Shown: one piece after another, positions 1,523 through 54,125 of the stretch | How the letters are laid out: every line of letters begins with the position of its first letter | Numbering within the stretch: position 1 is the stretch's first letter | NCBI GenBank assembly: GCA_963798845.1 | Contig: CAWCUS010000005.1 | Coordinates: forward strand, 288,001-352,000 | DNA: 64,000 nt | Reading direction: 5' to 3' | Source of the DNA: an uncultured Gemmatimonadales bacterium | GTDB taxonomy: Bacteria > Gemmatimonadota > Gemmatimonadetes > Longimicrobiales > RSA9 | The notes under the pieces: model-generated | The model's input: only the letters and a program-made list of their open reading frames with translations | What the model was told of the DNA's origin: nothing | The model's database searches: none | Program-made: the position numbers and the translations under genes

Positions 1523-1944
1523 CGAACTCCGAGCGGACCATCCTGGTGGTCGACGACGACCGGGACTACTCCGAGAGCCTTTCCACGTTCCTGCGGGCGC
1601 ACGGCTACCGCGTGGTGCAGGCGTTCGACGGGCGGGAGGGGCTGAAGCTAGCCCGGCTGGAGCAGCCGGAGCTGATCGTGATGGACGTGATCATGAACGA
1701 GCGGACGGAGGGGTTCTTCACCGTCCAGGAGATGCGTCACGAGCCGTCGCTGGACGGGGTCCCGATCTTCGTGGCGAGCTCGCTCTACGCCCAGGTGCCC
1801 GATTTCAAGATCGAGCCGGACCGGGGCTGGCTGGCGCACGACGAGTTCTTCGCGAAGCCGGTGGACCTGGACGCGCTGCTGGGCAGGATCGCGGCGCGGC
1901 TGAATGCGGAACCGGAGCCCGGAACCGGGGGGAGGATCGCGTGA
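1519..1944 (+). CDS. Single-domain response regulator receiver
   Basis: ATG at 1519 overlaps upstream TGA (ATGA); ILVVDDD, IVMDVIM, FAKPVD. Confidence 0.92.
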   Translation: MTNSERTILVVDDDRDYSESLSTFLRAHGYRVVQAFDGREGLKLARLEQPELIVMDVIMNERTEGFFTVQEMRHEPSLDGVPIFVASSLYAQVPDFKIEPDRGWLAHDEFFAKPVDLDALLGRIAARLNAEPEPGTGGRIA

Positions 1945-2969
1945 AGACCCTGCGAATGCCGAAGGACCGGCTCGATTTCTTCGCCTCCGTGCTCCAGCAG
2001 TTCGGGGAGGTCCACGCACCGGTGGAGCAGGACGGGGGCTACGCGTTCCAGCGCCTGCTGCGCTGGTCGGACGCGCGACTCGAGTACGACCGCACCGTGC
2101 TCCCGCCGAAGAAGTACTTCCTTCCTCCGCGGGAGACGCTGTTCACGTACGATGCGGTCAAGGGATACCAGGCGGGGTCGGAGGACCTGGACCGGCGCAT
2201 CATCCTGTTCGGGGTTCACGCCTGCGACATCTACGGGATCAACATCCTGGACGAGGTGTTCGGCGGAAAGTACCCGGACCCGTACTACCGGGCCCGGCGG
2301 CGGAACGTGGCGGTGATCGGGATCGACTGCACGCCGGACGAGCACTGTTTCTGCCGCTCGATGCGCGCCGACTTCGTGGACCACGGGTTCGACCTCTTCT
2401 TCTACGACATTGGCGACTACTACCTGACGCTGGTCGGCACCGCGCTCGGCGATGACATGGTGCTGGCCACCGGGTCGCTGTTCGAGGAGGTGGAGCCGGC
2501 GGACGTGGAGGAGTACAAGCGCCGCTCGTCGCTGAAAGCGGATGCCTTCCAGCTCGACGTCGACATCCGCGACCTCCCCGAAATCTTCGAGATGGAGTAC
2601 GGCGCGGAGATCTGGGAGGAGCTCGGGGAGAAGTGTCTGGCGTGCGGCAACTGCAGCATGGTCTGCCCCACGTGCTACTGCTACGACGTGAAGGACACGG
2701 TCGCCGCCGGGACGAGCAGCGGGTCCCGCCTGCGTTGCTGGGATTCCTGCCTGTTCTCCTCCCACGCCGCGGTGGCGGGCGGTGAGAACTTCCGCGAGCA
2801 CCGGGCGGACCGGATCAAGTTCCGGTTCTACCACAAGCAGCGGGGATTCGTGGCGGAGTACGGACGGCCGAGCTGCGTGGGGTGCGGCCGCTGCATCGTG
2901 GCCTGCCCCGTGGGGATCCACATCGCCCACGTGCTGAACGAGCTGAGGGGGGTGCACCATGAGGGCTGA
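1941..2969 (+). CDS. hydB: Group 3b [NiFe] hydrogenase (sulfhydrogenase) beta subunit, 4Fe-4S dicluster, AsrA-like
   Basis: PPKKYF, GVHACD, CFC, CLACGNCSMVCPTCYC, WDSC, CVGCGRCIVACP; operon position. Confidence 0.92.
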   Translation: MKTLRMPKDRLDFFASVLQQFGEVHAPVEQDGGYAFQRLLRWSDARLEYDRTVLPPKKYFLPPRETLFTYDAVKGYQAGSEDLDRRIILFGVHACDIYGINILDEVFGGKYPDPYYRARRRNVAVIGIDCTPDEHCFCRSMRADFVDHGFDLFFYDIGDYYLTLVGTALGDDMVLATGSLFEEVEPADVEEYKRRSSLKADAFQLDVDIRDLPEIFEMEYGAEIWEELGEKCLACGNCSMVCPTCYCYDVKDTVAAGTSSGSRLRCWDSCLFSSHAAVAGGENFREHRADRIKFRFYHKQRGFVAEYGRPSCVGCGRCIVACPVGIHIAHVLNELRGVHHEG

Positions 2970-3837
2970 GACGCTGACCACGGGCTGGCGGCCGGCCCCG
3001 GACTGGGAAGCCAATCCGTACCAGCCGGCGAACGCCCGAATCGTGCGGATCTTCAAGATGGTCCCGGACCATTACGTGTTCACGCTCCGGTTCGAGGATG
3101 AGAAGGCGGCGGACGCGTTCCGGCACCGGCCCGGGCAGTTCGTCATGCTGAGCGTCCCCGGCGCAGGCGAGGCGCCGATCTCCATCTCCTCGCCGCCCAC
3201 GCGCCGCGGTTACCTGGAGCTGTGCGTGCGACGGACCGGGCGCGTCACGAACGCTCTCTACCGTCTGCGCATGAACGACGTAGTGGGCCTGCGGGGGCCG
3301 TACGGGAACGGCTATCCGCTGGAACAGATGGAGGGCGGTGACCTGCTCCTGGCTGCGGGCGGGCTCGGGATGGCGCCGCTGCGCTCGCTGCTCTGGTACG
3401 CGCTGGACGAGCGCGAGAAGTTCGGCCGCGTGATCCTGATGTACGGGGGCCGCGAGCCGGCGCTCATGCTCTTCCGGGAGGAGATGGTCTCCCTTCTGGA
3501 CCGGGAAGACCTGGAGTGTCTGCTCACCGTGGACCGGGACCCGACGGGTACGTGGCCCGGTCACATCGGAGTGCTCGCGAGCCTGTTCGACGGCGTGTCG
3601 CTCGAGCCGGCCGTGACGCACGCGTGCGTGTGCGGCCCGCCCGTGGTGTACAAGTACGTGCTCGAGCGGCTGCTGGCGCTGGGGTTCTCGAAGGACAGGA
3701 TCCTCATGTCGCTGGAGCGGCGGATGAAGTGCGGCGTGGGCAAGTGCGGCCACTGCAGCATCGGCTACAAGACGACGTGCATCCACGGTCCGATCTTCAC
3801 GTACTGGGATGCCATCAACCTGCCGGAGATGATCTGA
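2959..3837 (+). CDS. hydG: Group 3b hydrogenase gamma subunit, FAD/NAD(P)-binding with 2Fe-2S
   Basis: PGQFVMLS, GEAPISISS, RGPYGNG, AGGLGMAP, CGPP, SLERRMKCGVGKCGHC. Confidence 0.93.
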   Translation: MRAETLTTGWRPAPDWEANPYQPANARIVRIFKMVPDHYVFTLRFEDEKAADAFRHRPGQFVMLSVPGAGEAPISISSPPTRRGYLELCVRRTGRVTNALYRLRMNDVVGLRGPYGNGYPLEQMEGGDLLLAAGGLGMAPLRSLLWYALDEREKFGRVILMYGGREPALMLFREEMVSLLDREDLECLLTVDRDPTGTWPGHIGVLASLFDGVSLEPAVTHACVCGPPVVYKYVLERLLALGFSKDRILMSLERRMKCGVGKCGHCSIGYKTTCIHGPIFTYWDAINLPEMI

Positions 3838-4589
3838 TGGGCAAGCCGACTGTAGGCATCTTCGGGCTCACGGGGTGCGCGGGGGACCAGCTGGCGATCC
3901 TGAACTGCGAGGACGAGCTGCTCCAGATCGTGGAGCTGCTGGACGTGCGCGACTTCCTGATGGCGAGCTCCGGCAACGACACGGCCGCCCATCTCGACAT
4001 CGCGCTGGTGGAAGGTGCCGTGCTGAGCCGACGGGACGAGGAGACGCTGAAGGAGATCCGGGCGCGGGCGGGGCTCGTCGTCGCCCTGGGCACGTGCGCC
4101 ATGCACGGCGGGGTCCCGATCATGGACCGGGACCACGACCGCGACGCCCTTCTGCGCCGCGTCTACGGAAGCGCGGGCGTACACTACGACGCCCACCCCA
4201 CCCGGCCGCTGCACCAGGTGGTCAAGGTGGACATGGGGATTCCCGGATGCCCGATCGAGAAAGACGAGTTCCTGGCGGCGATCGCGCACCTGCTGCACGG
4301 CGACCCGCCGCTCGCGGCGGCCTATCCGGTGTGCACCGAGTGCAAGGTCCGGGAGACGCAATGCCTGCTGGCACAGCCCGGCGCCTTCTGCATGGGTCCG
4401 GTCACGGCGGCCGGGTGCGGGGCACGCTGTCCGGCGCTGAGGATCGGCTGCGTCGGGTGCCGGGGACCGGCCGTGGACGCGAACCCCGCATCGCTGGCGG
4501 CGACATACGTGGAGCGCGGGATGCGGCCGGAAGCCGTCGCCCGGAAGATGAGGACGTTTGCGGCGACCCCCGTGGGGGAGGGCAACTGA
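3837..4589 (+). CDS. hydD: Group 3b hydrogenase small (delta) subunit
   Basis: ATG overlaps upstream TGA; GLTGCAGDQL, VEGAV, GTCA, PGCP, VCTEC, CMGPVT, GCGARCP, CVGCRG. Confidence 0.92.
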   Translation: MGKPTVGIFGLTGCAGDQLAILNCEDELLQIVELLDVRDFLMASSGNDTAAHLDIALVEGAVLSRRDEETLKEIRARAGLVVALGTCAMHGGVPIMDRDHDRDALLRRVYGSAGVHYDAHPTRPLHQVVKVDMGIPGCPIEKDEFLAAIAHLLHGDPPLAAAYPVCTECKVRETQCLLAQPGAFCMGPVTAAGCGARCPALRIGCVGCRGPAVDANPASLAATYVERGMRPEAVARKMRTFAATPVGEGN

Positions 4590-4590
4590 G

Positions 4591-5910
4591 ATGAGGAGCA
4601 CGACAGCGGTGGCCGGGCGACGCACCATCAAGGTGGATCACCTGGCGCGGGTCGAGGGGCACGGCGGGATCACCGTGGAGCTGGACGAGGATCGGATCGA
4701 GGCGGTCCGGTTCGACGTGTTCGAGGGAATCCGGCTCATCGAGGGGCTGGTGGGCGGTCGCAGCTGGGAGGACGTGTCGCAGATCGTGTCGCGCATCTGC
4801 GCCATCTGCTCCGTGGCCCACGCCCTGACTTCGATCCGGGCGACCGAGCGTGCCTTCGGCATCCAGCCCACGCACCAGACGGACCTCCTCCGGGACCTCA
4901 TGTGGCGGGGGGAGAACATCGAGAGCCACGCGCTCCACATCTTCCTCCTGGCCGCGCCGGACTACCTGGGCTACCCGAGCGCCCCGGCCATGGCGGCCGA
5001 TCACCCGGACGCGGTGGCGCTCGGACTTCGGCTGAAGCAGCTGGGAAACCGGATCCAGGAACTGATCGGCGGGCGGGCCATTCACCCGGTGAACGCCATC
5101 CCGGGCGGGTTCGGACGGGTGCCGGGGGAAGCGGCGCTCATCGAGCTGCGCTGCCAGCTGGAGCAGGCGAAGCCCGACATCGAGCGGACGCTGGAGCTCC
5201 TGCGCTCGCTGCCACGGACGGAGCCGCTGGACGCAGACACGGTGTACGCGGCGCTCCGTCCGGACAGGGAGTACCGCTACGACCAGGGCACCGAGGTGGT
5301 GTTCCTGCGGGACGGCAAGCGGCGGAGCGTCCCGGTGGACTCGCTGCGGAAGGTGGCGCCGGAGCACACCGTCGCCCATTCGCACGCGAAGCACACCACG
5401 CTCGACGGGCGGCCATTCATGGTGGGAGCGCTCGCGCGCCTGGCGGTGAACCGCGACCTGCTGCCGGATCGCGCCGCAGAGCTCCTCGACGACCTTGCCA
5501 TCCAGCTCCCGTCGCGCGACCCGCTGGACAACAACAAGGCCCAGGGAATCGAGCTGGCGCTCGACATCGACCGCTCCATCGAGCTCGTCGATGAGCTCCT
5601 CTCCCGAGGGCCGGAGCCGCAGCTCCCGCTCCGAATCCGGCCGCGCGCGGGGACGGGGACCGTGGTCAGCGAAGCGCCGCGTGGCACGCTGCTCCACAGC
5701 TACACGTACAACTCGGCCGGCAGCATCACGGCCGCCGACGTGATCACGCCCACGGCCTTCAACGCCGCGAGCCTGGAGGAGCACTTCCGCGCCGCAGTGC
5801 GCCGCGACGGCGTGGAGCACGAGGCCGCGCTCAAGCACACGCTGGAGATGATCGCTCGGGCCTACGACCCGTGCATCTCGTGCTCAGTACACCTCGTGAG
5901 GAGGAGGTAG
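4591..5910 (+). CDS. hydA: Group 3b [NiFe] hydrogenase large (alpha) subunit
   Basis: RVEGHG, L1 SRICAICSVAH, EAPRG, L2 RAYDPCISCSVH followed by short cleavable tail LVRRR. Confidence 0.96.
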   Translation: MRSTTAVAGRRTIKVDHLARVEGHGGITVELDEDRIEAVRFDVFEGIRLIEGLVGGRSWEDVSQIVSRICAICSVAHALTSIRATERAFGIQPTHQTDLLRDLMWRGENIESHALHIFLLAAPDYLGYPSAPAMAADHPDAVALGLRLKQLGNRIQELIGGRAIHPVNAIPGGFGRVPGEAALIELRCQLEQAKPDIERTLELLRSLPRTEPLDADTVYAALRPDREYRYDQGTEVVFLRDGKRRSVPVDSLRKVAPEHTVAHSHAKHTTLDGRPFMVGALARLAVNRDLLPDRAAELLDDLAIQLPSRDPLDNNKAQGIELALDIDRSIELVDELLSRGPEPQLPLRIRPRAGTGTVVSEAPRGTLLHSYTYNSAGSITAADVITPTAFNAASLEEHFRAAVRRDGVEHEAALKHTLEMIARAYDPCISCSVHLVRRR

Positions 5911-5918
5911 CGACTGGA

Positions 5919-7988
5919 GTGATCCGGGCCTTCTTCCGGAACCTGTCCCTCAGCGCCAAGCTGATCGCGAGCTATCTCGTCTTTCTCGGGATCGGCGGCC
6001 TGGCCATCACGGTGGTAGGCTCCACCATCGTGAGCTCCACCATCATGGCGGAGGCCGAACGCACGGTGAGCCACGACCTCGCCATCGCCCGGGCGATGTA
6101 CCGCCAGGACGTGCGGCTCCTCGACCGCACCGTGCGCGTGGCCGCCGCCGGAGACGAGCTCCGCGACCTCCTGCTGAGCGACGACACCGCGGCCATCCGC
6201 AGCTACCTCGGCCGGGTCCGCGCTCCCGGGCGTATGGACTTCCTGTCCGTGGCCGGCCCCGACGGCCGAGTCAGGGTCCGGGCTGCCCCCGGAGGCACCC
6301 GGCTCGATGATGCCGGCGCGCTCCCGGTGGTGGCGCAGGCGCTCGAGACCGGTCGGCCGCAGTCGGGGACCATGGTCATGTCCGCCGCCGAGCTCGAGCG
6401 GGAGGACCCGGCGCTGCGGACGCGCGCCCGCGTGCGCCTCAGCCCGACCCCCCGGGCAGAGCCCTCGGCGCGCCGCGAGGTCACGTCCGGCCTCGTCCTC
6501 TCCGCGGCCGCCCCCCTGCGCGCCGCCGACGGCCGCACCGTAGGGGTCCTCTACGCCGGACACCTGCTCAACGGCGACTTCGGGATCGTGGACGCCGTCT
6601 GGAACGAGCTGTACCGGGACAACACCAGCGGCGTGGGGGAGCTCGCCGGCACGGTCACCCTCTTCCTCGGCGACGTGCGCGTCTCCACCAACGTCCGCAC
6701 ACCCACGGGGGAGCGCGCCACGGGCACGCGCGTGTCGGCCCCGGTGGCCGAAGCGGTGCTGCAGCAAGGCGAGCGGTGGAACGGGCGCGCCTTCGTCGTG
6801 GACGACTGGTTCATCACCGCGTATGAGCCGCTGCGCGACGTCACCGGCAGAATCGTCGGGATGCTCTACGTCGGGCTGCCGGAGGCCTCCTACGTGGCCA
6901 CGCGCAACCGCGTCATCCTGTCCTTCATCGGGATCGCGACGGTCGGCTTCCTCCTCGTTCTCGCGGTCACCTACATCGGCATCCAGCGCATGACCCGGCC
7001 GCTCGCCCAGATGGTCGACGCCACGCGCAGCATCGCCGGGGGCGACTTCGACCACGAAGTGGAGGTCGACCCGCGCTCCGAAGGCGAGATCTCCCGCCTC
7101 GCCGGCTCCTTCAACTTCATGCTCCAGGGGCTGCGAGAGATGCGCGGCGACGTCGAGGAGTGGGCGCTGACGCTGGAAGAGAAGGTCCGCGAACGGACGG
7201 CTGAGCTGGTCAAGATGCAGGCCAGGGTGGCCCAGTCGGAGCGGCTGGCGTCGCTCGGGATGCTCGCCGCCGGCGTCGCCCACGAGGTGAACAATCCGCT
7301 GGGCGGCATCCTGGCGCTGACGTCGCTCACCCTCGAGGAGCTTCCCGAAGACCACCCGGAGCGGGAGAACCTGGAGGAAGTGGTCCGGCAGACCGAGCGC
7401 TGCCGCGACCTCGTCAAGCACCTCCTGGAGTTCTCACGCCAGACCGAGGTGAGCCCGGAGGAGATGAGCCTCAACGACGTGATCGAGCGCACGCTCGCCC
7501 TGCTGCGCCGCCAGTCGCTCTTCTTCAACGTCCGTGTCGACACGCACCTCGACCCCGACCTGCCCCCGATCTTCGGCGACAGCTCCCAGCTCGAGCAGGT
7601 GTTCATGAACATCCTCATGAACGCCGTCCAGGCCATGGACGAGCAGGGCACGATCACCATCACCACGCAACGTGCCGCCGGCGACGATGCCTTCGTCGAG
7701 CTCCTCTTCGCCGACACCGGCAAAGGCATCCCCCCGGAGCACCTCGGGCGCATCTTCGACCCCTTCTTCAGCACCGGCAAGGGCGGCCAGGGCACCGGTC
7801 TCGGACTCTCCATCGCCTACGGCATCATCAGCAAACACCGGGGCACCATCTCCGTCGAGAGCGACGTCGGCGTCGGCACCAGCTTCACCATCCGCCTCCC
7901 CGTCGCCGCCCGCTTTGCCGGCGCCGCCGAGGAGGACGGGATCGGGATTCCGGTCGTCGCCTGGCTCGGATCAGGAGGAGCAGAATGA
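5919..7988 (+). CDS. Membrane sensor histidine kinase (extracytoplasmic Cache-like domain, HAMP, NtrB-type HisKA/HATPase)
   Basis: Two TM segments; TVTLFLGDVRVSTNV...ERATGT, AYEPLRD...IVGMLYVG; AGVAHEVNNPL, QVFMNILMNA, FDPFF, GTGLGL. Confidence 0.93.
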   Translation: MIRAFFRNLSLSAKLIASYLVFLGIGGLAITVVGSTIVSSTIMAEAERTVSHDLAIARAMYRQDVRLLDRTVRVAAAGDELRDLLLSDDTAAIRSYLGRVRAPGRMDFLSVAGPDGRVRVRAAPGGTRLDDAGALPVVAQALETGRPQSGTMVMSAAELEREDPALRTRARVRLSPTPRAEPSARREVTSGLVLSAAAPLRAADGRTVGVLYAGHLLNGDFGIVDAVWNELYRDNTSGVGELAGTVTLFLGDVRVSTNVRTPTGERATGTRVSAPVAEAVLQQGERWNGRAFVVDDWFITAYEPLRDVTGRIVGMLYVGLPEASYVATRNRVILSFIGIATVGFLLVLAVTYIGIQRMTRPLAQMVDATRSIAGGDFDHEVEVDPRSEGEISRLAGSFNFMLQGLREMRGDVEEWALTLEEKVRERTAELVKMQARVAQSERLASLGMLAAGVAHEVNNPLGGILALTSLTLEELPEDHPERENLEEVVRQTERCRDLVKHLLEFSRQTEVSPEEMSLNDVIERTLALLRRQSLFFNVRVDTHLDPDLPPIFGDSSQLEQVFMNILMNAVQAMDEQGTITITTQRAAGDDAFVELLFADTGKGIPPEHLGRIFDPFFSTGKGGQGTGLGLSIAYGIISKHRGTISVESDVGVGTSFTIRLPVAARFAGAAEEDGIGIPVVAWLGSGGAE

Positions 7989-8455
7989 CCGCTGAGCATC
8001 CCGTACTCGTCGTGGGCCTCGGGAATCCCCTCTCCGGCGACAATGGCGTCGGCTGCGCCCTCGCCCATGCCCTCGCCGCCCGCGCCGACCTCCCCGCCCA
8101 CGTCGAGGTCATCGAAGGCGGCAGCGACCTCCTCCGCCTCGAAAGCCGCCTCGAGGACCGCCGCTGGATCCTCCTCGTCGACGCCCTCCTCGACCCCGAC
8201 CAGCCCGGACGCCTGCTCCGCTTCGACGGCGACCTCGACGAGCTCGACCACCACGGCGGCAGCGTACACCACATGCCGCCCACCGCCGCCCTGCGCCTGC
8301 TCCGCTGCCTCTACCCTGCCCTCGCCGCTGTCCCCGTCACCTTCCTCGGCGTCACCATCGACGGTGCCACCGTGAGCACCAGCCTCTCCCCCGAGCTCGA
8401 CGCCCGCCTCGACGACCTCGCCGACGAGATCCTCGGCCTCATCGCCGGACGCTAG
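7985..8455 (+). CDS. Hydrogenase maturation endopeptidase (HybD/HycI family)
   Basis: VVGLGNPLSGDNGVG, ILLVDA, SVHH; coupled to the hydrogenase operon. Confidence 0.9.
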   Translation: MTAEHPVLVVGLGNPLSGDNGVGCALAHALAARADLPAHVEVIEGGSDLLRLESRLEDRRWILLVDALLDPDQPGRLLRFDGDLDELDHHGGSVHHMPPTAALRLLRCLYPALAAVPVTFLGVTIDGATVSTSLSPELDARLDDLADEILGLIAGR

Positions 8456-44904: not shown

Positions 44905-45106
44905 GGGTGCGCCTGTCTCGGGTCGGAGGATCAGAGAATGGTCGCGCCGCGCGCGCGCGGCAACGTCCGTGGCACGAGATGGTCCGCTCCCGTGATCGAC
45001 CGCGTCGGTTGGAATACGAGGGTCCCTGGCGGTGACCGCCGTAGTGAAGGAACCGGCGGAGCGGGCTCGCGGCGAAACACCCGAAACCCGCGCCGTTCCT
45101 GCAAAG

Positions 45107-45190
45107 CGGAGGGCCGGGGATTCGAACCCCGATGGGCTTGCGCCCGGCGGTTTTCAAGACCGCTGCCTTACCAGTTAGGTCTAGCCCTCC
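45107..45190 (-). tRNA. tRNA-Ser (anticodon TGA), CCA not encoded
   Basis: GGAGGGC...GCGGT-CTTGAAA-ACCGC, long variable arm GGGC-GCAA-GCCC, GGTTCGAATCC, GCCCTCC-G acceptor stem. Confidence 0.95.
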
Positions 45191-45221
45191 AGGAGGCCGC
45201 GAGCGGGACGGGGGATCGCGC

Positions 45222-45253
45222 TCCCCCTCCCCCTCCCCCTCCCCTACCCTACC
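45222..45253. repeat. (CCCCCT)n degenerate tandem repeat just upstream of tRNA-Ser
   Basis: Directly visible C-tract array. Confidence 0.8.
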
Positions 45254-45395
45254 ACGGCCCGCGGCACAAGATCGCGCCGCGAGCGGCCGCTGACCAGAGC
45301 GGTCCGCGGCCGGCTGCCGGTGGCGCGCCGAGGAGGACGAGCCGGAGCTCGCCCCGGAGCGGCGCGCTCGCGGCCGGCCGCGGCGCGCCTGCCGG

Positions 45396-47009
45396 CTATG
45401 CCGATGGGGTGGCGCCGAGCGTCTTCTGACCGATCCTGAAGATCACGAACTCAGCCGGCTTCAAGGGCGCGACGCCGATGGCGCAGACGAGGCGACCATT
45501 GTCGATGTCGGCGCGGGTCATGGTCGAGCGGTCGCACTTCACGAAGAACGCCTCCTCCGGCTTCGTGCCCGTGAGCCCGCCCTCGCGCCAAACGGTCATC
45601 AGGAAGTTCTCGATGTTCTGCCGCACCCGGGTCCACAGGGGCTGCCCGTTCTCCTCGAAGACCGCCCACCTCGTACCCCTGTCGATCGATTGCTCGAGGT
45701 AGATGAGCAGGCGTCGAACGTTCACGTACTTCCATTCCGGGTCGGCCGACATGGTGCGGGCACCCCACACCAGGATGCCGCGACCGACGGGACGGAAATC
45801 TCGGATCACGTTCACGCCGCGCGGGTTCAGCGTGTCCTGCATGCCGCGCGTGACCTCGAGCTCGAGATCCAGGGCGCCGACGAGCGGGGCATTCGCGGGC
45901 GCCTGGTGCACGCCGGCCTCGGCGTCGGTGCGTGCATAGACGCCCGCGACATGGCCCACCGGCGGCACCAGGATGCGGTCGCGGCCGTCGGGACTCGCCA
46001 CGTGGATCCACGGCCAGTAGATGGCGCCGAACATGGTAGGCCGATCGTTGACGATGGTGCCGACCTCGCGCTGGCCGGCGGCGACGGACAGGATCGCGAA
46101 GCGGTCGGAAAGCCGCTCGCACTGGCCGATGATCTCGTCCGAGAGGTCGGAGCCGAAGTCGTGCTCGTCCGGCGCAGCCAGCAAGGTGACTTCGTCCACG
46201 CGCTCCAGACCGAGCAGCCCGGTCGCGAAGTGGACCTGCTCTCCGTTGCGCGCGAGCGGGCCCTCCTCGGAGCCGCGATAATCCGCGAGCGTGAGCGGCG
46301 CGCCGTCGTCGCCGTTCGCCAGCCTGACGAACTGCGTGTTCGCCGGGCGGCTCGCGCTCGCGACACCGCCCTTCCACTCTCCCGAGACCAGGCTGGAGCC
46401 GCGCAGCGCAGCGAGGACGTAGCTGGCGTCCCCGGGGTCGGCAGACAGATCGTCGTAGACCTCCAGGTGATCGGGCCGGCGGAAGTGGGGATCCGCGTGC
46501 GCTCCCCGCCGGCTCGGATCCACGAACCTTCCGGCGGCCACGGGCGCCGGGACCGTAGCGTAGCAGGCCACGACGAGGCGGAACCGGTCCGGTGGCGGGC
46601 TCGTCGGATCGGCCGGGTCGCGGCTGGTCGGGTCCGTCACCGCGACGACGATGTTGTTGCCCCTGGCGCCGGGGCCGAGCGCGCTCAGCACGAGCGGCCC
46701 GAGGGTATCGCCCGAGCTCGCGGTGCGGGCTGGAGTCGCCTCATCGATGCTGACCACCCGGGCGATGAACGCGCGCCGGCCGCCGTTCTCGAAATAGCCC
46801 CTGACGGCATGCGGCATGTGCGACGTCGCACCCTGCCCCGCGGCCCCGCCGTACAGCCGCTCGAACTCAGCCCAGCTCGTCACCAGCCGGACTTCCGAAG
46901 GCCCGCGCTCCGTCGGGCCCACGATGCCCAGGCTGCTGGTGGCGACCCCCTCGATCGGTTTCGTTCGGATCTCGTCCACGTGCACGCCTGGGGACCTCTG
47001 CTCGGGCAT
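45396..47009 (-). CDS. Contractile tail sheath protein of eCIS (Afp/PVC-like) type, with no other tail genes nearby
   Basis: SPGVHVDEI, GPTERGP, YFENGG, IYWPWI, GHVAGVYARTD..GVHQAPAN, LNPRGVNVIR, VWGARTM, WKYVNVRR, EAFFVKCD, APLKPAEFVIFRI. Confidence 0.95.
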   Translation of the reverse strand: MPEQRSPGVHVDEIRTKPIEGVATSSLGIVGPTERGPSEVRLVTSWAEFERLYGGAAGQGATSHMPHAVRGYFENGGRRAFIARVVSIDEATPARTASSGDTLGPLVLSALGPGARGNNIVVAVTDPTSRDPADPTSPPPDRFRLVVACYATVPAPVAAGRFVDPSRRGAHADPHFRRPDHLEVYDDLSADPGDASYVLAALRGSSLVSGEWKGGVASASRPANTQFVRLANGDDGAPLTLADYRGSEEGPLARNGEQVHFATGLLGLERVDEVTLLAAPDEHDFGSDLSDEIIGQCERLSDRFAILSVAAGQREVGTIVNDRPTMFGAIYWPWIHVASPDGRDRILVPPVGHVAGVYARTDAEAGVHQAPANAPLVGALDLELEVTRGMQDTLNPRGVNVIRDFRPVGRGILVWGARTMSADPEWKYVNVRRLLIYLEQSIDRGTRWAVFEENGQPLWTRVRQNIENFLMTVWREGGLTGTKPEEAFFVKCDRSTMTRADIDNGRLVCAIGVAPLKPAEFVIFRIGQKTLGATPSA

Positions 47010-47073
47010 GGCTCGCCTCCGTCGGTGCGTGTCCGTCATCACATCAATGCGCGCGATCGCGGTGCGGGCCGGC

Positions 47074-49233
47074 TCAGCGCACGGTCACCGCGACGGGGTC
47101 CAGCCCCGGCCGCTCCGCCAGCACCACCTGCACCGGCCCGGCCGGCCTCGCCTGGCCGATCAGCGTCCAGCGCGCTTCCCACAGCCACGCTCCGTGGCCG
47201 CCGGGGCCTCGCTGCCAGACTTCCACCCGCGGGTCGTCGTCCCAGACCACCACGGGAGACCCGGCGTCGTCGCGGTAGCGGAACGCGATGACGGGGCCGT
47301 CCGCGGGAACCAGGCGGCCCGGGTGCAGGTCCGTCCAGCGGGCGACGAGCGCGTCCCCCTCCCACGCCGCCGTGAGCCGTCGCGGCCCGAGCGCTTCGGG
47401 CGCGGGCCCCGCATGGGGCGGCGGGAGGACGTGCGCATCCCCGAGGCGAAAGAAGGTGAGCTCCGGCACGACGGGATCCGGCGAGGGCTCGCTCGCGGCT
47501 GGAAGCCGCGCGGCCATGTCGCCTGCGAGGCGGGCGAGGTACTCGGCGGTGCGGGGGCCGTAGAGGGTCGAAGAGCCCTCGTAGTTCTGGAGCCGGTACT
47601 CGGCGGGGCTTGCCACGTACTGGTTGTAGCCGTTCGCGAGCCCGACGACCAGCGCCCGGTCGGGCGAGCTTCCGGCCACCGCCGCACCGGCGAGCGCTGC
47701 GTCGCGGATCATGCCCCCCACCACCGTGGTCGCCTCGAACGGGATCGCCACGAGGATCGAGCCGCCCACGTCTGCCACCGTGACCTGCGCCACGTCAGGG
47801 AGGAGCCGGGACAGGACCCGCCGCTGCAGCCTCCCGAGGAACGGCTTCTTCGATCCCTGGCATCCCCGGGGCGGGTTGCGGGTCGAGACCGCCGAGTCCT
47901 CGGCGAAGCCGACGTCGTGAACGCCGAAGAAGCGCCAGTTGCGGTAGCGGGTGTAGCCGTCGTCGGCGCCGGCGAGGGTCGCGGTGCCGGGCTGGGGCGG
48001 GCACAGCCCGTCTCCGATCTGAGCGGCCGCGGTGAGTCCGACGGTCTGAAAGACGCGGCGGATGACGAAGTCGTCGGAAAGCGTGCCTGCTCGGCCGATC
48101 GAGTCGAACACGGCCACCACCGCCTCTCCCAGGGCAGTCCCGACGCGCAGGACCTCGGACCGGGCGAAGACGAGGCACCGAGCCTGCTCTGGCGGGTCCG
48201 GCGGGATCCACAGCTCCGGGCCTGGTGGCGTGCGCGGGCCGGCGGGACGACGCACGGCCGCCAGCCACGGGACCTGGCAGCGGGTACGGACCGGCACGTC
48301 GGGCGCCACGTCGCCCTCGGCGCTGTTGGCCACCAGGTGGACCGCGGTGGGACGGAACGCTGGAGCCCGGCCGTTGATCGAGTCGATGTGCGCTTCCAGC
48401 CGCCGCTCGGCCACTCCCTGGATATCGGCATCGTACAGGCGATTCGCCGACGGGATGCCGGTGCCGTGGATGGCGAAGACCGTGAACGCCCCCGCGGGTC
48501 GGAACGCGCCGTCGCCTGGATCGCGGGAGTCGACGCGCAGCACGGCCAGCGTGGAGTCGACCATTCCGGAGGCGAGGGAGCCGGGCGGCGCGCGGAACCG
48601 GCGCCGCCACGCCTGCGGGTTCGCCTGGAACGGCTTGACGCTGCGGTTCTTCGTGAGATCCCAGACCGCGGCCGTCCCCCACGCCGCCCGGGCCGCCGTC
48701 ATGGACCCGCTCGCCGCCTCGAGCGCGGCCGCGATGCGGTCGGCGAGGAACGCCACCATGCGCGGATCGAAGCCGCCCACCGATGTGCCGAGCTCGTCGT
48801 ACGCCGGGTACCCGAAGTGGTTGCCCGGACCGGCGTGCGTGTGGGTGGCGGAGACGATGAGCCGGTCGGGTCCCAGCCCGGTGGCGGCCCGCACACGCGC
48901 GGCCACCTCCCGGTGCAGGAGCGGCGACAGCTGGCCGAGGTCGAGGGTGACGAGCCCGAGCCGCTCTCCCGAGCCGTCCTCCAGCACCAGCGCCCGGGCG
49001 TACAGTCGCGTCCGCCAGCCCTGCGACGCCTTCCCTTCCGGGCCGTAGCCCATCAACCCGGCCCCTGGCGGCGGCGTGATGTCGGCCCGACCGAACCCCG
49101 CGCGCAGGCCGGTCGTGGCCGGGGCGGCGGGGGGTGGCGATGGCGCAGTCGCGGGCTCCACGAACCCCCGGGCGCAGGCTGCGGGCGCGATCAGGACGAG
49201 GAGCGGGACCAGAGACCGTCGCAGCGAGGTCAT
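47074..49233 (-). CDS. Neutral/alkaline non-lysosomal ceramidase family lipoprotein
   Basis: PAAC lipobox; GRADITP, LMGY, RLYARA, SATHTHAGPG, FAIHGT, EGDVAP, PFEATT, GLANGY..Y, YEGSSTLYGP. Confidence 0.9.
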   Translation of the reverse strand: MTSLRRSLVPLLVLIAPAACARGFVEPATAPSPPPAAPATTGLRAGFGRADITPPPGAGLMGYGPEGKASQGWRTRLYARALVLEDGSGERLGLVTLDLGQLSPLLHREVAARVRAATGLGPDRLIVSATHTHAGPGNHFGYPAYDELGTSVGGFDPRMVAFLADRIAAALEAASGSMTAARAAWGTAAVWDLTKNRSVKPFQANPQAWRRRFRAPPGSLASGMVDSTLAVLRVDSRDPGDGAFRPAGAFTVFAIHGTGIPSANRLYDADIQGVAERRLEAHIDSINGRAPAFRPTAVHLVANSAEGDVAPDVPVRTRCQVPWLAAVRRPAGPRTPPGPELWIPPDPPEQARCLVFARSEVLRVGTALGEAVVAVFDSIGRAGTLSDDFVIRRVFQTVGLTAAAQIGDGLCPPQPGTATLAGADDGYTRYRNWRFFGVHDVGFAEDSAVSTRNPPRGCQGSKKPFLGRLQRRVLSRLLPDVAQVTVADVGGSILVAIPFEATTVVGGMIRDAALAGAAVAGSSPDRALVVGLANGYNQYVASPAEYRLQNYEGSSTLYGPRTAEYLARLAGDMAARLPAASEPSPDPVVPELTFFRLGDAHVLPPPHAGPAPEALGPRRLTAAWEGDALVARWTDLHPGRLVPADGPVIAFRYRDDAGSPVVVWDDDPRVEVWQRGPGGHGAWLWEARWTLIGQARPAGPVQVVLAERPGLDPVAVTVR

Positions 49234-50138
49234 GGCGTCCTCCGGAGCGGGTAAAGGATACTCAGGGCCACGTCCAGTCGGGCGGTGACGCGGGCCTCGT
49301 CGCCGGGATCGGGGCCGCGCCGGCGCGTGGCTCCGTCGATCCCGAGCTGGACGGTGCCATCCAGGTGCAGCGTCATGGGGATCCCGGCCGGCTGAAAGAA
49401 CGGCGTCGCCCCCAGTGACAGCTGCACATGCGTCAGCCCTTCGCCCTCGTATCGGGCGGGCTCCGGGTCGGTGCCGCCGGTGCCCTCCGGGTCCTGGTTC
49501 CAGCTCCAGCCGGCCGCCAGCCGTGCGACCAGAGAGCCGAGCGGCTCACCGACGAACAGCACCGGCAGGCGCGACACGAGCGCGGTCTCCACGTAGGTGC
49601 CGCCGACGGGGCCCAGGTCGAAGGCGGCGGACGCATCCACGCCGATCGGCAGGTCGGACGGAAGCCCCACGATCGTGTACAGCTGCCCCAGTCCGCTCAG
49701 GCGAGCGCCGAGGAAGAGCTCGCTCGCGTCGCGCGCGTCTCCCAGTCCGCCCGACGCCGGGTCCCCGTGGAAGGTGTAGCGGGTCCAGCCGCCCCGGAGG
49801 TCGATCACCGCGGACGCGAGCCGGAGCCGATAATCACCCTCCGTCCAGACGTCCACCTCGGCCAGGCCGCCGTCCTGGCCCGCGAGCGTCAGGTCGCCCG
49901 CCCCCGGGCGCCACGGCTCCACCAGCGCCCAGCCGCCGGCGCTGATCATGAGCGCCGGCCCCTTCCACGCCAGAGCGAGTGCAGGCTGGACCGTCGCCCG
50001 GCTCACCCGGGTCAGCCCGCGCCACACGTAGTCCGTCGAGAACCCGAGGTCGATCGCCCCCTCCACCTGCGCCGCGCTCGCGGACGGCACGAGCAGGGAA
50101 AGCGTCAGGAGGAGCGAACGGAACGCGCCCCGGATCAC
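49230..50138 (-). CDS. Outer membrane beta-barrel, TorF/gcw_chp-like putative porin
   Basis: Signal peptide then STDYVWRGL...VQP, EVD, YTF; overlaps both neighbours by 4 nt. Confidence 0.72.
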   Translation of the reverse strand: MIRGAFRSLLLTLSLLVPSASAAQVEGAIDLGFSTDYVWRGLTRVSRATVQPALALAWKGPALMISAGGWALVEPWRPGAGDLTLAGQDGGLAEVDVWTEGDYRLRLASAVIDLRGGWTRYTFHGDPASGGLGDARDASELFLGARLSGLGQLYTIVGLPSDLPIGVDASAAFDLGPVGGTYVETALVSRLPVLFVGEPLGSLVARLAAGWSWNQDPEGTGGTDPEPARYEGEGLTHVQLSLGATPFFQPAGIPMTLHLDGTVQLGIDGATRRRGPDPGDEARVTARLDVALSILYPLRRTP

Positions 50139-51589
50139 GGGGCCTCCACCGGAAAATGGAGCGTCCGCCGAAGCAGCAGCCGGGCTCCGGCGACGCCCGC
50201 TTCCGGCCGTCCCCAGGCGCTGATCACCGCCCGGATCATCCCCTCGGCCTCGCGGTGGGTGAAGGTCACGGTCGCGTAGTTCTGGCGGTCGGTCGTGACG
50301 AAGTCGCCGCCACCGAGCGAGGCGTCGGTGCTCTCGAGTCGGAAGTGGGCGCCGCTCCCGCCGAGGACGCCGCGCGTCACCTCCGGCCCACCCGGAGGGT
50401 CGGTCCCGGGAGCTTCCTTGAGGCGGGAGAACGCCGAACAGGTGAGCTCGGCGAGCCGGAGCTCGTCGCGCGCGTCCACCGGATCGAACCCCTCGATGAC
50501 ATAGAGGCGGGTGTAGTGGAGGTCGCCGGCCAGGACCAGGACGCGCTTCCGCGCGTTGGTGAGCGCGGTGACGAGCCGTGCGTAGTCCGCAGTGTAGTCG
50601 GCCAGGTTGTGGTCGGTGAAGCTGCCGGGGCCCTGGAAGATCGGCGGTCCCACGGCCAGGATGCCCAGCCCGCCCGGCTCCATGAGCCAGTCGCACACGG
50701 CGTCGAGGTGATGCGGGTCGGTGAACTGCACGGCGCCCGGCGTGTCCGCGCGCGTCCGGCCGAGGCGCGTGTCGAGCGAGAAGAACGACAGCGGCGGGAC
50801 GTCGAAGCGGATGGTGTCCGCATTCTCCCGCAGGATGCCCGGCGTGATCTGCCCGACGGCGGCGACCAGCCCGGGATCCAGGTTGAGCGCGCCCTGAAAG
50901 GCGTCGAACGCCTTCCGAAGCTCCCGATCCAGCTTCTGCACACCCGAGTCTCTGGTCCACGGGAGCCAGAGCGGCTTGTGCGGGTAGTCGTTCCACATCT
51001 CGTGGTCGTCCGCCAGGAACACGGTGGGCGGGAGCTGCCGGAGCAGGTTGGCGAAGCGGCGGTCTCGCCACTGCTCCAGGTAAGCCGCCCACGGGTCCGG
51101 GGCCTCCCTCATCGGCATGGACCAGGCGTCGGGCCTTTCCGGCGCGATCTCCTTCACCAGGTCCATGTAGATCTGGTCGCCCAGCAGGAACGCGAGCCGC
51201 AGCGGGTCCGCGCTGTCGGGCCGGTGCTGCCGGGGCGGGAACCAGCGCCAGACCTCGTCGACATCCATCGGCCAGTTGTAGCAGGACCCTAGCGCCATCG
51301 TGAACGGCGCGCCGCCCGCGAGCGTGGCCGGCAGCGTGCGGGCGCGTCCGATCTGCTCGTCCCCATCCTCGGTCCGCCCGGACAACGTGTAGGCCGAGTC
51401 GGGCTGGAGCCCGGTGGTCGCCGCGAGCCAGGCCCGGCCCGCGTCGCCCGGCAGGTCGGCCAGGACGTGCACCTTGGTGTCTCCCGCGCCGATCGACGGC
51501 GCCAGCTCCAGGGTCAACGGTGTGCTGTCCTCGGCCAGGATCCACCAGGTGAGGCCATCCGATGCCGCTCTTCCCGGGACGATGAGCAT
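50135..51589 (-). CDS. PhoD-like metallophosphoesterase, no evident signal peptide
   Basis: GLQPDSAY fibronectin-like segment, ALGSC, LGDQIYMD, DDHEMWND, LDTR, GDLH. Confidence 0.85.
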   Translation of the reverse strand: MLIVPGRAASDGLTWWILAEDSTPLTLELAPSIGAGDTKVHVLADLPGDAGRAWLAATTGLQPDSAYTLSGRTEDGDEQIGRARTLPATLAGGAPFTMALGSCYNWPMDVDEVWRWFPPRQHRPDSADPLRLAFLLGDQIYMDLVKEIAPERPDAWSMPMREAPDPWAAYLEQWRDRRFANLLRQLPPTVFLADDHEMWNDYPHKPLWLPWTRDSGVQKLDRELRKAFDAFQGALNLDPGLVAAVGQITPGILRENADTIRFDVPPLSFFSLDTRLGRTRADTPGAVQFTDPHHLDAVCDWLMEPGGLGILAVGPPIFQGPGSFTDHNLADYTADYARLVTALTNARKRVLVLAGDLHYTRLYVIEGFDPVDARDELRLAELTCSAFSRLKEAPGTDPPGGPEVTRGVLGGSGAHFRLESTDASLGGGDFVTTDRQNYATVTFTHREAEGMIRAVISAWGRPEAGVAGARLLLRRTLHFPVEAP

Positions 51590-51839
51590 GAGAGATCTCC
51601 TGTCGGCGGAGGTCCGGCTCCGGTGCGCGAAGGGGTGCGGGCTGCGCAGCGCGGGATACCGAAAGCACGGCTGAAGGCTGGAACGTCCGGAGCCAGTGAT
51701 AGGGGCGCGGCGACCGCCGTGCAAGGGGGACGTTCCGGACGCCTCCGCCTCGGCGCGCCGGCCCGCCCGGTTGACACGCGGACCCCGGCCGGAGAACAAT
51801 GAGAAATTCCGCCTGTCTCACAGAAGCCCAGGAACTCCC

Positions 51840-52700
51840 ATGATCGCTCGCCGCACCCTGTCCGTACCCGCGCTCGTCGTTCTGCTCGCCACGCTGGCGC
51901 CGCCAGCGGCGCGCGCCCAGACGGCGGCCCAGGTCTTCCAGACGGCCATGGACCGCTACGCCAGCCGCATGAAGGGGATCGAAAGCTATACCGTCGTGCA
52001 GGACATGATGGGATTCGAGACCACCACGTACCATTCGCGCGTCGAGGGGAGCGATCCGCCCATCTACGACACCAAAGTGGTCATCGCGGGGCAGGACCTC
52101 TCCAGCCTGAGCCCCGCGCAGAAGGAGCAGGCCCGGAGCCCGGACATGAGCGAGCTCTATCCCGAGCTGGCGAAGCGCGCCAGCCTGAAGGGGAGCGAGT
52201 CTGTGGACGGCCACGAAACGTACGTGATCGAGATCGACGACCTCTCCGGGATCTCCGTGTGGCAGCAGTCCGGTGAGGCGGGCCAGAGCTTCGAGCCGAA
52301 GACCATGACCATGTACCTGGACAAGGACCAGTACGTCCCTCGCCGGGTCAGGATCGAGGGCAGCACGGACATGAACGGCAAGAAGAGCGACATCACCATG
52401 GTCATGAACGCGGGCGACTACCGGGAGGTCGAGGGGCTGCTCTATCCGTTCCACACGACCATGCACATGGAAGGGATGGAGAACGCCATGAGCCCCGAGG
52501 ACCGGGCGCAGGCGCAGGAGTCGCTGGACCAGATGGAGGAGCAGATGAAGAACATGCCCGAAGCCCAGCGGAAGATGATGGAGAAGATGATGGGCGGGCA
52601 GATGGAGAAGCTGAAGCAGATGGTCGGCGGCGGCGGGATGGACATGGAAGTGAGCGTGAAGGATGTGAAGGTGAACACGCCGCCTCCCGCGGAGGGGTGA
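51840..52700 (+). CDS. Secreted hypothetical protein (LolA/DUF4412-like) with Met-rich C-terminus
   Basis: Signal peptide ARA-Q; GSESVDGHETYVI, DYREVEGLLYP. Confidence 0.72.
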   Translation: MIARRTLSVPALVVLLATLAPPAARAQTAAQVFQTAMDRYASRMKGIESYTVVQDMMGFETTTYHSRVEGSDPPIYDTKVVIAGQDLSSLSPAQKEQARSPDMSELYPELAKRASLKGSESVDGHETYVIEIDDLSGISVWQQSGEAGQSFEPKTMTMYLDKDQYVPRRVRIEGSTDMNGKKSDITMVMNAGDYREVEGLLYPFHTTMHMEGMENAMSPEDRAQAQESLDQMEEQMKNMPEAQRKMMEKMMGGQMEKLKQMVGGGGMDMEVSVKDVKVNTPPPAEG

Positions 52701-52775: not shown

Positions 52776-53993
52776 TCACTCGTCGCCGGGAACCGGGAAG
52801 CGCTGGGCGGCCCAGGTCGCGGTGACGCCGTGGACCGTGACGGACGCGGCGATGACCAGGCTGGTGATGTTCCACAGCCCGTGAACGCCGAGGCGGCGCG
52901 TCGCCAGGAACGTGTAGTAGATCGACGCCACGCCGATCGGGCCGAACCACCCCACGAAGAGGATCTGCGGGAGCGTCCTGATCCGCGGCATGGCGGGGGC
53001 CAGGGCGAAGGTCGCCGGGAGGCGGCGGAGGAAGAGGACGGAGGCCGCGAACGCGAAACCCTTCCACCCCAGGGCGGCCCACGCGCCGAACGGCAGCGTG
53101 GCCCCGAGCACGATGAACACCGGCGTCGTGAAGAAGCGGGTCACGGCTTCCTGGACCCGCTTTTTCGATTCGTCCGCTTCGGTGACCTGGCGATCGAACG
53201 CGAGGCCGCCGGCGAACACGGCCAGGATGTCGTCGCTCCCGATGAGCTTCGCGGCGCCGAGGATGATGAGGGCGAGGGCAAGGCTGTACATGAGGATGGT
53301 GGGCGGATCCATGTGCTCGCTGCTGTCCGCCCACTCCCACGCCCGACCGGCGACGTAGCCGAGACCGGCCCCCACGGCCACCGCCGCGCCCACCTCCCAG
53401 AGCACCACCCGCACGAACCACTCGTACGGCACCGCGGCGACGCCGTCGCGGAGGACCACGATCGAGAGCAGGACGAGCGGGAGCGCAAGGCCGTCGTTGA
53501 GCCCTGACTCGGCCGAAAGGCTGTGGCGCACGTCTTCGGGCACCCGCTCCTCGGCCACGTGCCCGGTGACGATTGCCGACGCGATCACCGGGTCCGTGGG
53601 GGCCAGGATCGCCCCGACCAGCGCCGCGACCCAGAACGGGAGGCCGAGAATCCACCAGGCGAGGAGGGCCGTGACGGCCCACGCCACCGGCATGACCCCC
53701 GCGAGCAGGAGCGCCAGCGGCCGCTTCAACGCAGCCATGGCGCCGCGGGGGAGACGCATGGCGATCTCCACCAGGCCGAACGCGAGGGTGAAGCGCGCCA
53801 CCTGCTCGAGGAGAACGTCGTGATTCGCCCAGTTCTCGGGCGTGACGGCGCCCGTCACCGGGCCGAGCAGGATCCCGGCGATCATCGCCGTGAGCGGGCC
53901 CGCCACGAACGTGCGGGAGAAGACGGAAGCGAACAGCCCGATGAGCAGGACGGCAAGGCCGGCGAACGCCAGGATCTGGTTCAGCTCGTTCAA
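52776..53993 (-). CDS. CPA1/NhaP-type cation:proton antiporter (start uncertain)
   Basis: Multiple TMs; LAPTDPVIA, AESGLNDG, LRRLP, GWFGPIG. Confidence 0.92.
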   Translation of the reverse strand: MNELNQILAFAGLAVLLIGLFASVFSRTFVAGPLTAMIAGILLGPVTGAVTPENWANHDVLLEQVARFTLAFGLVEIAMRLPRGAMAALKRPLALLLAGVMPVAWAVTALLAWWILGLPFWVAALVGAILAPTDPVIASAIVTGHVAEERVPEDVRHSLSAESGLNDGLALPLVLLSIVVLRDGVAAVPYEWFVRVVLWEVGAAVAVGAGLGYVAGRAWEWADSSEHMDPPTILMYSLALALIILGAAKLIGSDDILAVFAGGLAFDRQVTEADESKKRVQEAVTRFFTTPVFIVLGATLPFGAWAALGWKGFAFAASVLFLRRLPATFALAPAMPRIRTLPQILFVGWFGPIGVASIYYTFLATRRLGVHGLWNITSLVIAASVTVHGVTATWAAQRFPVPGDE

Positions 53994-54125
53994 CGCCCCG
54001 AAGCTCCAGTGCGGTCGGTCTCCATGAGCGCGCGTCCGCTGCAAGGACCGGACGACGGGAGCGTGATGAGGCCGTAGCGGTGAAAGGCTGTGGCGCCGGG
54101 GTCCCCGGCAGGCGAGGCGGTTGGG

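Follow-up and report, generated by a model that had tools for sequence, protein, structure and literature searches.

A 64,000-nt stretch of the genome of an uncultured, soil-type Gemmatimonadales bacterium (assembly GCA_963798845.1, here G000; contig C5, CAWCUS010000005.1, positions 288001-352000; hereafter the window) carries a tail sheath gene of the contractile injection system (CIS) type that stands apart from any tube, baseplate or spike gene. We consider it the most probable reading (roughly 0.55) that this orphan is a stranded sheath under relaxed constraint, which would lie outside any working injector and be a leftover rather than a weapon. Four observations favour a stranded remnant: the gene is alone, the sister species lacks it, its nearest kin sit in an operon, and its sequence bears the signature of relaxation. 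An initial annotation of the window had allowed for an adjacent assembly break hiding the rest of the locus; this was excluded, since the locus is internal to a 403-kb contig. The sheath gene and its ribosome-binding site are located as follows:

45396..47009, minus strand: CIS-type tail sheath gene, 537 aa, intact, with stop codon TAG at 45396-45398 (from the open reading frame (ORF) and its translation)
47016..47020, minus strand: Shine-Dalgarno-like GGAGG, 6 nt upstream of the ATG at 47009 (read from the sequence)

An alternative start, a GTG at 47042, would add 11 aa and give an ORF of 548 aa (45396..47042, minus strand). Both sheath domains of Pfam were recognized above their gathering scores (Phage_sheath_1, PF04984, E = 1.1e-14, 55.1 bits against a cut-off of 31.4; Phage_sheath_1C, PF17482, E = 1.4e-15, 57.6 bits against 26.9), which places the protein in the contractile tail sheath superfamily, and the best PHROGs matches were tail sheath families (4e-56 and 6e-52). 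The AlphaFold model (mean predicted local distance difference test score, pLDDT, 79.3; predicted template modelling score, pTM, 0.76) retrieved only CIS or phage sheaths among the top Foldseek matches. Over its full length the protein aligned to two solved CIS sheaths. The better one was the contracted sheath of the Halogeometricum borinquense CIS (PDB 9EZM, PMC11566945), which was the best match both in sequence (9ezm_A, E = 4e-123) and in fold (E = 1.2e-49, TM score 0.60-0.65, 43% identity); it comes from a working machine, and it has VFEPN and a YQSPGVYVEE arm where the orphan has VFEEN and QRSPGVHVDE. The other was Cis2, a sheath of similar length from the cytoplasmic CIS of Streptomyces coelicolor (PDB 8BKY and 8BL4, PMC10066040), with residues 1-532 of the orphan aligned to residues 1-528 (8bky_A, E = 1.5e-96; Foldseek E = 2.6e-26). 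Weaker sequence matches in the PDB included Pvc2-4, Afp2-4, the sheaths of Anabaena and Algoriphagus, T4 gp18 and the pyocin sheath. The Afp2-4 and Pvc2-4 paralogues are encoded in tandem within a single operon, and their products assemble together. The orphan shares the C-terminal sheath core with them (PDB 6RAO, 6J0B and 6J0N; E = 1e-25 to 1e-51) but is unlinked to any tube. As judged from sequence and predicted fold, the gene is a genuine CIS sheath of the Afp/PVC/Streptomyces-CIS kind. Homology spans residues 1-534, and no frameshift, premature stop or truncation that would mark a pseudogene was found.

To the solitude of the gene we devoted searches at the level of the locus, the window and the whole assembly (4.26 Mb, 6 contigs, 96.3% marker completeness). 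The initial annotation had described a full-length sheath of 537 aa followed by about 200 nt and a tRNA-Ser, with no other phage or extracellular contractile injection system (eCIS) gene in 64 kb; ORF calling, Pfam and ARAGORN agreed with this description, the spacer measuring 205 nt, and a Pfam scan of the 39 other window ORFs revealed no phage- or CIS-like gene. In the assembly, PF04984 matched two ORFs, the orphan and, weakly, a second sheath on contig C6. The gp19-type tube (PF06841) gave no match in G000, while the same search was positive in the relatives G447, G302 and G212; a custom hidden Markov model (HMM), trained on 265 tube ORFs taken from related loci and run with filters off against 48,275 six-frame segments, reached a best E-value of only 0.56 across G000. 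The gp25-like family (PF04965) gave no match in this genome, and Baseplate_J (PF04865), spike and PAAR matches were confined to a tail cluster on C6, so that no baseplate or spike gene of the sheath's own system was found in the assembly. When all ORFs of three eCIS loci were used as tblastn queries against G000, they retrieved the sheath (68% identity) and otherwise gave weak matches to one DUF4255 ORF and to the C6 spike and PAAR genes; nothing was recovered from the spacers beside the sheath, and in the 205-nt spacer no remnant of a tube gene was detected, the proteins of these loci giving chance-level alignments only (E >= 0.004, <=67 aa). The DUF4255 (PF14065) ORF is a lone Pvc16_N gene of 172 aa (C6:1222265-1222783; L209:10266-10784) that lies among sortilin/BNR-like, subtilase and RCC1-like genes and is absent from the same-genus genome G001. 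It was considered as a sibling remnant of the sheath's operon and rejected, because its identity to the cap proteins of the operons that carry the sheath's sisters is only 23-30%, against 61% between those caps; the sheath locus itself holds no DUF4255 (Afp16/Pvc16) cap gene. An AAA+ ATPase of the Afp15 kind makes no useful marker, AAA+ domains being ubiquitous. By these searches, all cognate partners (gp19-type tube, gp25-like and gp6/J-like baseplate, spike and cap) are missing from the assembly, and without them the predicted sheath cannot build a contractile injection machine.

Among the relatives, 15 of 41 genomes matched the orphan query (a count that includes the unpublished genomes G016 and G017), and the same-genus G001 had no match. 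Within 73 genomes of the family, four passed E = 1e-60, and only G447, from another genus, had a full-length close homologue (70% identity); a stand-alone orthologue was found in none of the 72 other genomes. When 401 genomes sampled from the class were searched, the three that passed E = 1e-100 were G000, G302 (51% identity) and G212 (44%). Unlike the orphan, the sheaths of the relatives that share its type (G447, L091 and G212) are accompanied in their operons by tube, baseplate, spike and cap genes: the G447 operon (G447:C178) reads Pvc16_N, an unassigned gene, CarboxypepD_reg, sheath, gp19, gp19, CIS_tube/LysM, GPD, Phage_base_V and Baseplate_J; the L091 locus of Longimicrobium (56% identity) contains Pvc16_N, sheath, tube and a second sheath; and the G212 locus contains sheath, two tube genes, GPD and spike. 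Of the 15 relatives with a sheath, 11 had a tube gene no more than a few hundred bases away from it, those lacking one being G000, the fragmentary G016 and G021, and G036. In the last of these, which belongs to the same order, we observed a 681-aa sheath-like ORF (L016:1483-3528) with no gp19 tube in the locus or in the genome. The lone sheath was not found at a syntenic place in any relative searched, the close homologue in G447 being embedded in an operon.

The sequence of the orphan departs from its family at sites that are otherwise nearly fixed. Among the best 120 of 3065 matches in a large database, the top ones were Gemmatimonadota and Longimicrobium proteins with 60-68% identity, followed by a broad family at ~50%; the 111 proteins of 500-575 aa were aligned, and 9 of other lengths were dropped. 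At the 170 columns conserved in >=90% of this alignment the orphan deviates 17 times (rank 5 of 111, family median 4), and in 10 of these cases no other member shares the deviation. Two regions account for the excess, the N-terminal arm (6 of 21, median 1) and the conserved core (43 of 181, median 21); there is none in the variable middle or the C-terminal arm. In solved sheaths the N-terminal arm links neighbouring subunits. Here it carries Y4Q, L5R, Y10H and E12D, at four positions where 93-97% of the family agree, and has lost two residues. In the predicted protein the N-terminal motif is recognisable yet changed, so that the initial annotation, which had called both terminal motifs intact, needs correcting for this end; for the C-terminal arm, which is normal for the family, its description stands. 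A diverged C-terminal arm had also been entertained and was rejected on comparison with the wider family (2 of 16 deviations, rank 21 of 111). The annotation's reading of VFEEN in place of the usual VFEPN was borne out; it corresponds to P453E, at a position where proline is found in 91% of the 111 family members.

The rate of change was raised as well. In a FastTree phylogeny the orphan fell within the Gemmatimonadota clade, and its terminal branch measured 0.454, compared with 0.04-0.22 for most sisters. In Tajima relative-rate tests with four outgroups the orphan evolved faster in 36 of 40 tests at chi2 >= 3.6 (for example, 66 against 30 unique changes relative to P0002, chi2 13.5), while 20 of 21 sister-sister controls were not significant (largest chi2 3.8). 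Lineage-specific residues fell in highly conserved columns in 17 of 77 cases in the orphan and in 12 of 150 cases in seven sisters (Fisher p = 0.005); expressed per column, the orphan accumulated 0.10 changes in high-conservation and 0.16 in low-conservation columns, compared with ~0.01 and ~0.07 in the sisters. At the nucleotide level, lineage-specific changes at codon positions 1/2/3 numbered 55/57/84 in the orphan and 38/15/100 in G447, and the second-position changes of the orphan ran predominantly towards GC (26 against 13). A three-taxon decomposition with bootstrap gave an omega of 0.44 (0.30-0.70) for the orphan branch, a mean for all the time since it parted from G447, and 0.14 (0.09-0.21) for the G447 branch; these figures are rough, owing to synonymous divergence (dS) near saturation and to the value obtained for the operon-embedded L091 (below). 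The pairwise dN/dS between the orphan and G447 (0.25) is, with dS near saturation, uninformative for the terminal branch. Taken at face value, the substitution patterns clearly point to a protein that evolves about twofold faster than its sisters with constraint flattened across sites, as would be expected under relaxed, not zero, purifying selection. Relaxed selection and absence from close relatives had been named beforehand as the marks of a relic, one of three explanations offered in the initial annotation, and both were found.

A number of observations weigh against a stranded, decaying sheath. One sister, P0011, has a comparably long branch (0.403), and the orphan was not significantly faster than this protein in any of four Tajima tests (chi2 1.3-3.6). 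The composite L091 branch reached an omega of 0.37 although its gene is operon-embedded, and the bootstrap probability of omega >= 1 on the orphan branch was 0.004. The reading frame is unbroken over 537 codons and preceded by a good ribosome-binding site, and GC content at the three codon positions (0.69/0.52/0.89) is host-like. Had the excess changes been fully neutral, about 1-4 nonsense mutations would be predicted under two simple neutral scenarios, and several frameshifts would also be expected; none were seen. As to the latter, the sole lineage-specific indel of the orphan is an in-frame deletion of two codons, and with one such indel only the indel test of frame maintenance is without power. 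Low AlphaFold confidence at residues 428-454 and 515-537 was considered as a sign of decay and rejected, because confidence drops in the same way in an operon-embedded sister modelled from the same sequence set; the two profiles being alike, no structural decay is shown. Finally, in two Acidobacteriota species (G461 and G462) lone sheaths compared with each other gave a dN/dS of 0.29, indicating purifying selection.

These last genes belong to a wider set. From the sheath family 160 loci were fetched, 77 of which had >=3 kb on both sides; a gp19 tube was present in 71 of these, and six (L034, L037, L039, L043, L154 and L171) had no tube within 10 kb and ordinary genes as neighbours. The Acidobacteriota sheaths (L034:9995-11542 in G461 and L037:9896-11506 in G462) are 80% identical and syntenic, in the shared order acetyltransferase, unassigned gene, sheath, pyrroloquinoline quinone (PQQ) dehydrogenase and cytochrome c. 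In G461, G462, G463, G464 and G302 the family sheath is the only PF04984 match of the genome. The first two keep a solitary pair of gp19 tube genes 57-77 kb from the sheath (L215:12258-13096 and L217:13289-13712), between an HtrA-like protease and iron-sulphur (Fe-S) biosynthesis genes, and neither genome gave a match to Baseplate_J, gp25 or DUF4255; a frameshift and a ~235 bp deletion disrupt the tubes of G461, whose sheath is intact. In G462 and G302 the gp19 genes are solitary, with housekeeping genes on both sides. At the 170 conserved columns, the seven other lone sheaths deviate 13-49 times, compared with 2-3 times in G447 and L091, which are operon-embedded; G212, a distant operon member, does so 19 times. 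Although the lone sheaths are scattered over different parts of the tree, some changes recur among them: leucine 5 is replaced by R or K in five of the eight and by S in a sixth, Y4 and Y10 are changed repeatedly, F435L recurs, and E440 is changed in all eight. Every family member with R5 (P0062, P0068, P0074, P0112 and P0110) is a high deviator at conserved sites, and such proteins may be further lone sheaths.

This recurrence bears on a second explanation, put forward in the initial annotation as a domesticated filament, namely that the sheath is kept for a job that does not need a tube, for example as polysheath-like tubules or a cytoplasmic scaffold, its fast evolution reflecting shifted constraints. 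We regard such a role as possible and clearly less probable than a leftover. The idea gains from the intact frame, the ribosome-binding site, native codon usage and a branch omega below 1, from the repeated occurrence of lone sheaths (the six loci above, G302 and G036), from the conservation of a syntenic lone sheath under purifying selection in two species whose genomes lack the baseplate and cap families searched for, and from the changes at common positions, with L5 turned into R or K in at least four lineages. It also has a precedent, since recombinant T4 gp18 forms polysheaths without a tube (PMC9230969); tube-free polymerisation of this kind is the only plausible activity for a lone sheath, yet the homology is distant (E = 1e-7 to 3e-8), and polysheath is an aberrant product with no known cellular function. 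Against a tube-independent job speaks that the orphan is a singleton, with no lone orthologue in G001 or the 72 other family genomes, and that its changes strike conserved sites almost as often as variable ones and run towards GC at second codon positions, as relaxation and GC pressure would give. The same pressures can explain the replacements that recur (L to R, F to L, Y to H), each being a single GC-ward step. The filament therefore stays a rival to the relic and does not displace it.

The third proposal of the initial annotation was a satellite, swappable sheath for an injection system encoded elsewhere. The genome does contain a contractile tail cluster without head genes, of phage type, on contig C6 (C6:428145-446841; L003:3146-20000, L002 and L004:144-1841), comprising a 565-aa sheath, a 126-aa tube-like ORF, a 438-aa ORF, GpU-like, gpD-like, spike, PAAR, gp25-like and wedge genes and genes for long coiled proteins, with a 1233-aa CHAT-domain gene directly upstream. 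It is nevertheless very unlikely that the orphan serves this cluster, which comes with a sheath of its own that shares only 25% identity with the orphan (over 366 aa, pairwise E = 0.018), and whose tube is not gp19-like: the 126-aa ORF had no tube HMM match, and the Atlas clusters closest to it consist of phage tail and tail-tube proteins. The orphan comes from a different lineage, of the Afp/Streptomyces-CIS type, and relaxed evolution speaks against a structural role that needs exact packing. Moreover, the C6 sheath was not found in G001, G447, G013, G295 or G395, so that the cluster looks like an independent mobile acquisition. With C6 differing in this way and no Afp-type tube or baseplate in the genome, the satellite proposal is weakened.

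Another version of a functional sheath would place its cognate eCIS operon in an unassembled part of the genome, the sheath having been displaced. The assembly is in six contigs and 96.3% complete, and a comparable case may be seen in G302 (Gemmatimonadota), where the only sheath (L198:10734-12314), one gp19 tube (L219:14989-15384), one DUF4255 gene and one gp25-like gene (G302:C122:198-686 and G302:C102:4002-4304) lie on four contigs, housekeeping genes flanking sheath and tube; this looks like a dispersed set of eCIS parts. For G000 we give this explanation the smallest probability of all, because ~20 kb of unique genes would normally assemble, no cognate fragment was found at contig ends or elsewhere, and the relaxed pattern is not what would be expected of a working part.

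The features neighbouring the sheath are:

45106-45190, minus strand: tRNA-Ser (anticodon TGA), downstream neighbour of the sheath (ARAGORN)
45191..45395, no strand assigned: spacer of 205 nt, sheath stop to tRNA-Ser
45221-45244: perfect (GGGGAG)4 tract as read on the minus strand, the strand of the tRNA and the sheath, (CTCCCC)4 on the other, ~30 nt upstream of tRNA-Ser (Tandem Repeats Finder, TRF)
47010..47073, minus strand: spacer of 64 nt, ceramidase stop (TGA 47074-47076) to sheath ATG
47074..49233, minus strand: neutral/alkaline ceramidase-family gene, 719 aa, upstream neighbour (Pfam PF04734, 1.7e-62)
49230-50150, minus strand: 306-aa ORF, exported-looking, with a signal-peptide-like start; no Pfam match
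50138-51799: PhoD-like gene (Pfam)
45191..51696, no strand assigned: variable block of sheath, ceramidase, 306-aa ORF and PhoD-like gene (tblastn synteny against G001:C3:1-20000)

The variable block is specific to G000, because G001 goes from its tRNA-Ser (on G001:C3, a 96% match with different flanks) straight to homologues of the window genes 51696-52697 and 52779-54044, which follow ~550 nt on; this interval, the counterpart of the block, holds one 142-aa ORF. The ceramidase-family gene is an accessory gene and not part of a CIS. It is patchy, occurring in 6 of 73 family genomes (a count that includes the unpublished G017 and G449), with <=43% identity in the five other than G000, and no homologue was found in G001. 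A 4-nt overlap between the stop of the 306-aa ORF and the start of the ceramidase gene suggests that these two and the PhoD-like gene, possibly with the sheath as well, form an operon; no terminator-like or sigma-70-like site was found in the 64-nt spacer between ceramidase and sheath, so that read-through from the upstream genes is possible. Although tRNA genes have been described as integration sites of eCIS (Geller et al., PMC8213781), this is context and no proof here: a search for signs of site-specific integration turned up neither an att-like direct repeat of the tRNA-Ser nor an integrase encoded in the window, and promoter-like and terminator-like sites were not found either. Fragments recovered from public runs were of low depth and 151-274 nt long, identical to the window and without variants, besides unrelated partial matches. 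Contigs from the public runs seemed to be cut at 45210-45261, around the (CTCCCC)4 tract. Elsewhere in the window, at 1941-8455, lies an unrelated NiFe-hydrogenase-related set (Fe-S and FAD/NAD subunits, large subunit and HycI maturation protease) flanked by sensor kinases.

Returning to the stranded remnant as the preferred reading, we propose that a sheath from a Gemmatimonadota clade whose other known members sit in complete eCIS operons became stranded, either by descent from a once-complete locus or by partial transfer. After the loss of its context, changes would have gathered at sites that are near-invariant in operon-embedded sheaths, including the N-terminal arm. Transcription probably reaches the gene by read-through from the ceramidase genes upstream, and translation would start from its own ribosome-binding site; a sheath protein so made would have no tube to wrap and could at most self-associate, and the gene may be on its way to loss. 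Catalogues of eCIS would miss such a gene, because they define loci by clusters of core genes, which leaves single stranded parts invisible: that of Geller et al. 2021 requires >=10 core genes (PMC8213781), and that of Chen et al. 2019 uses genomic context (PMC6899500). A literature search on orphan or solitary contractile sheaths, which left most subscription journals outside its coverage, found nothing on point.

For the window alone the result is modest, since a decaying leftover is most likely. For annotation it means that lone sheath genes should not count as evidence of an injection system. The orphan offers a worked example of what becomes of a sheath after it has left its machine, with an intact frame, doubled divergence and changes at near-invariant sites, and the same signature in seven other lone sheaths poses the question of whether some of them have found a second life. 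We suggest only tentatively, and think it rather unlikely, that lone CIS sheaths, the orphan included, form a recurrent, uncatalogued class in soil and sediment bacteria (Gemmatimonadota, Acidobacteriota and others) that, once tube and baseplate had been lost, was retained for a role other than injection, for example as a cytoplasmic tubule that assembles by itself. If this were true, the changes that these sheaths have in common, in the N-terminal arm and at positions 435 and 440, would be the mark of this new mode of assembly.

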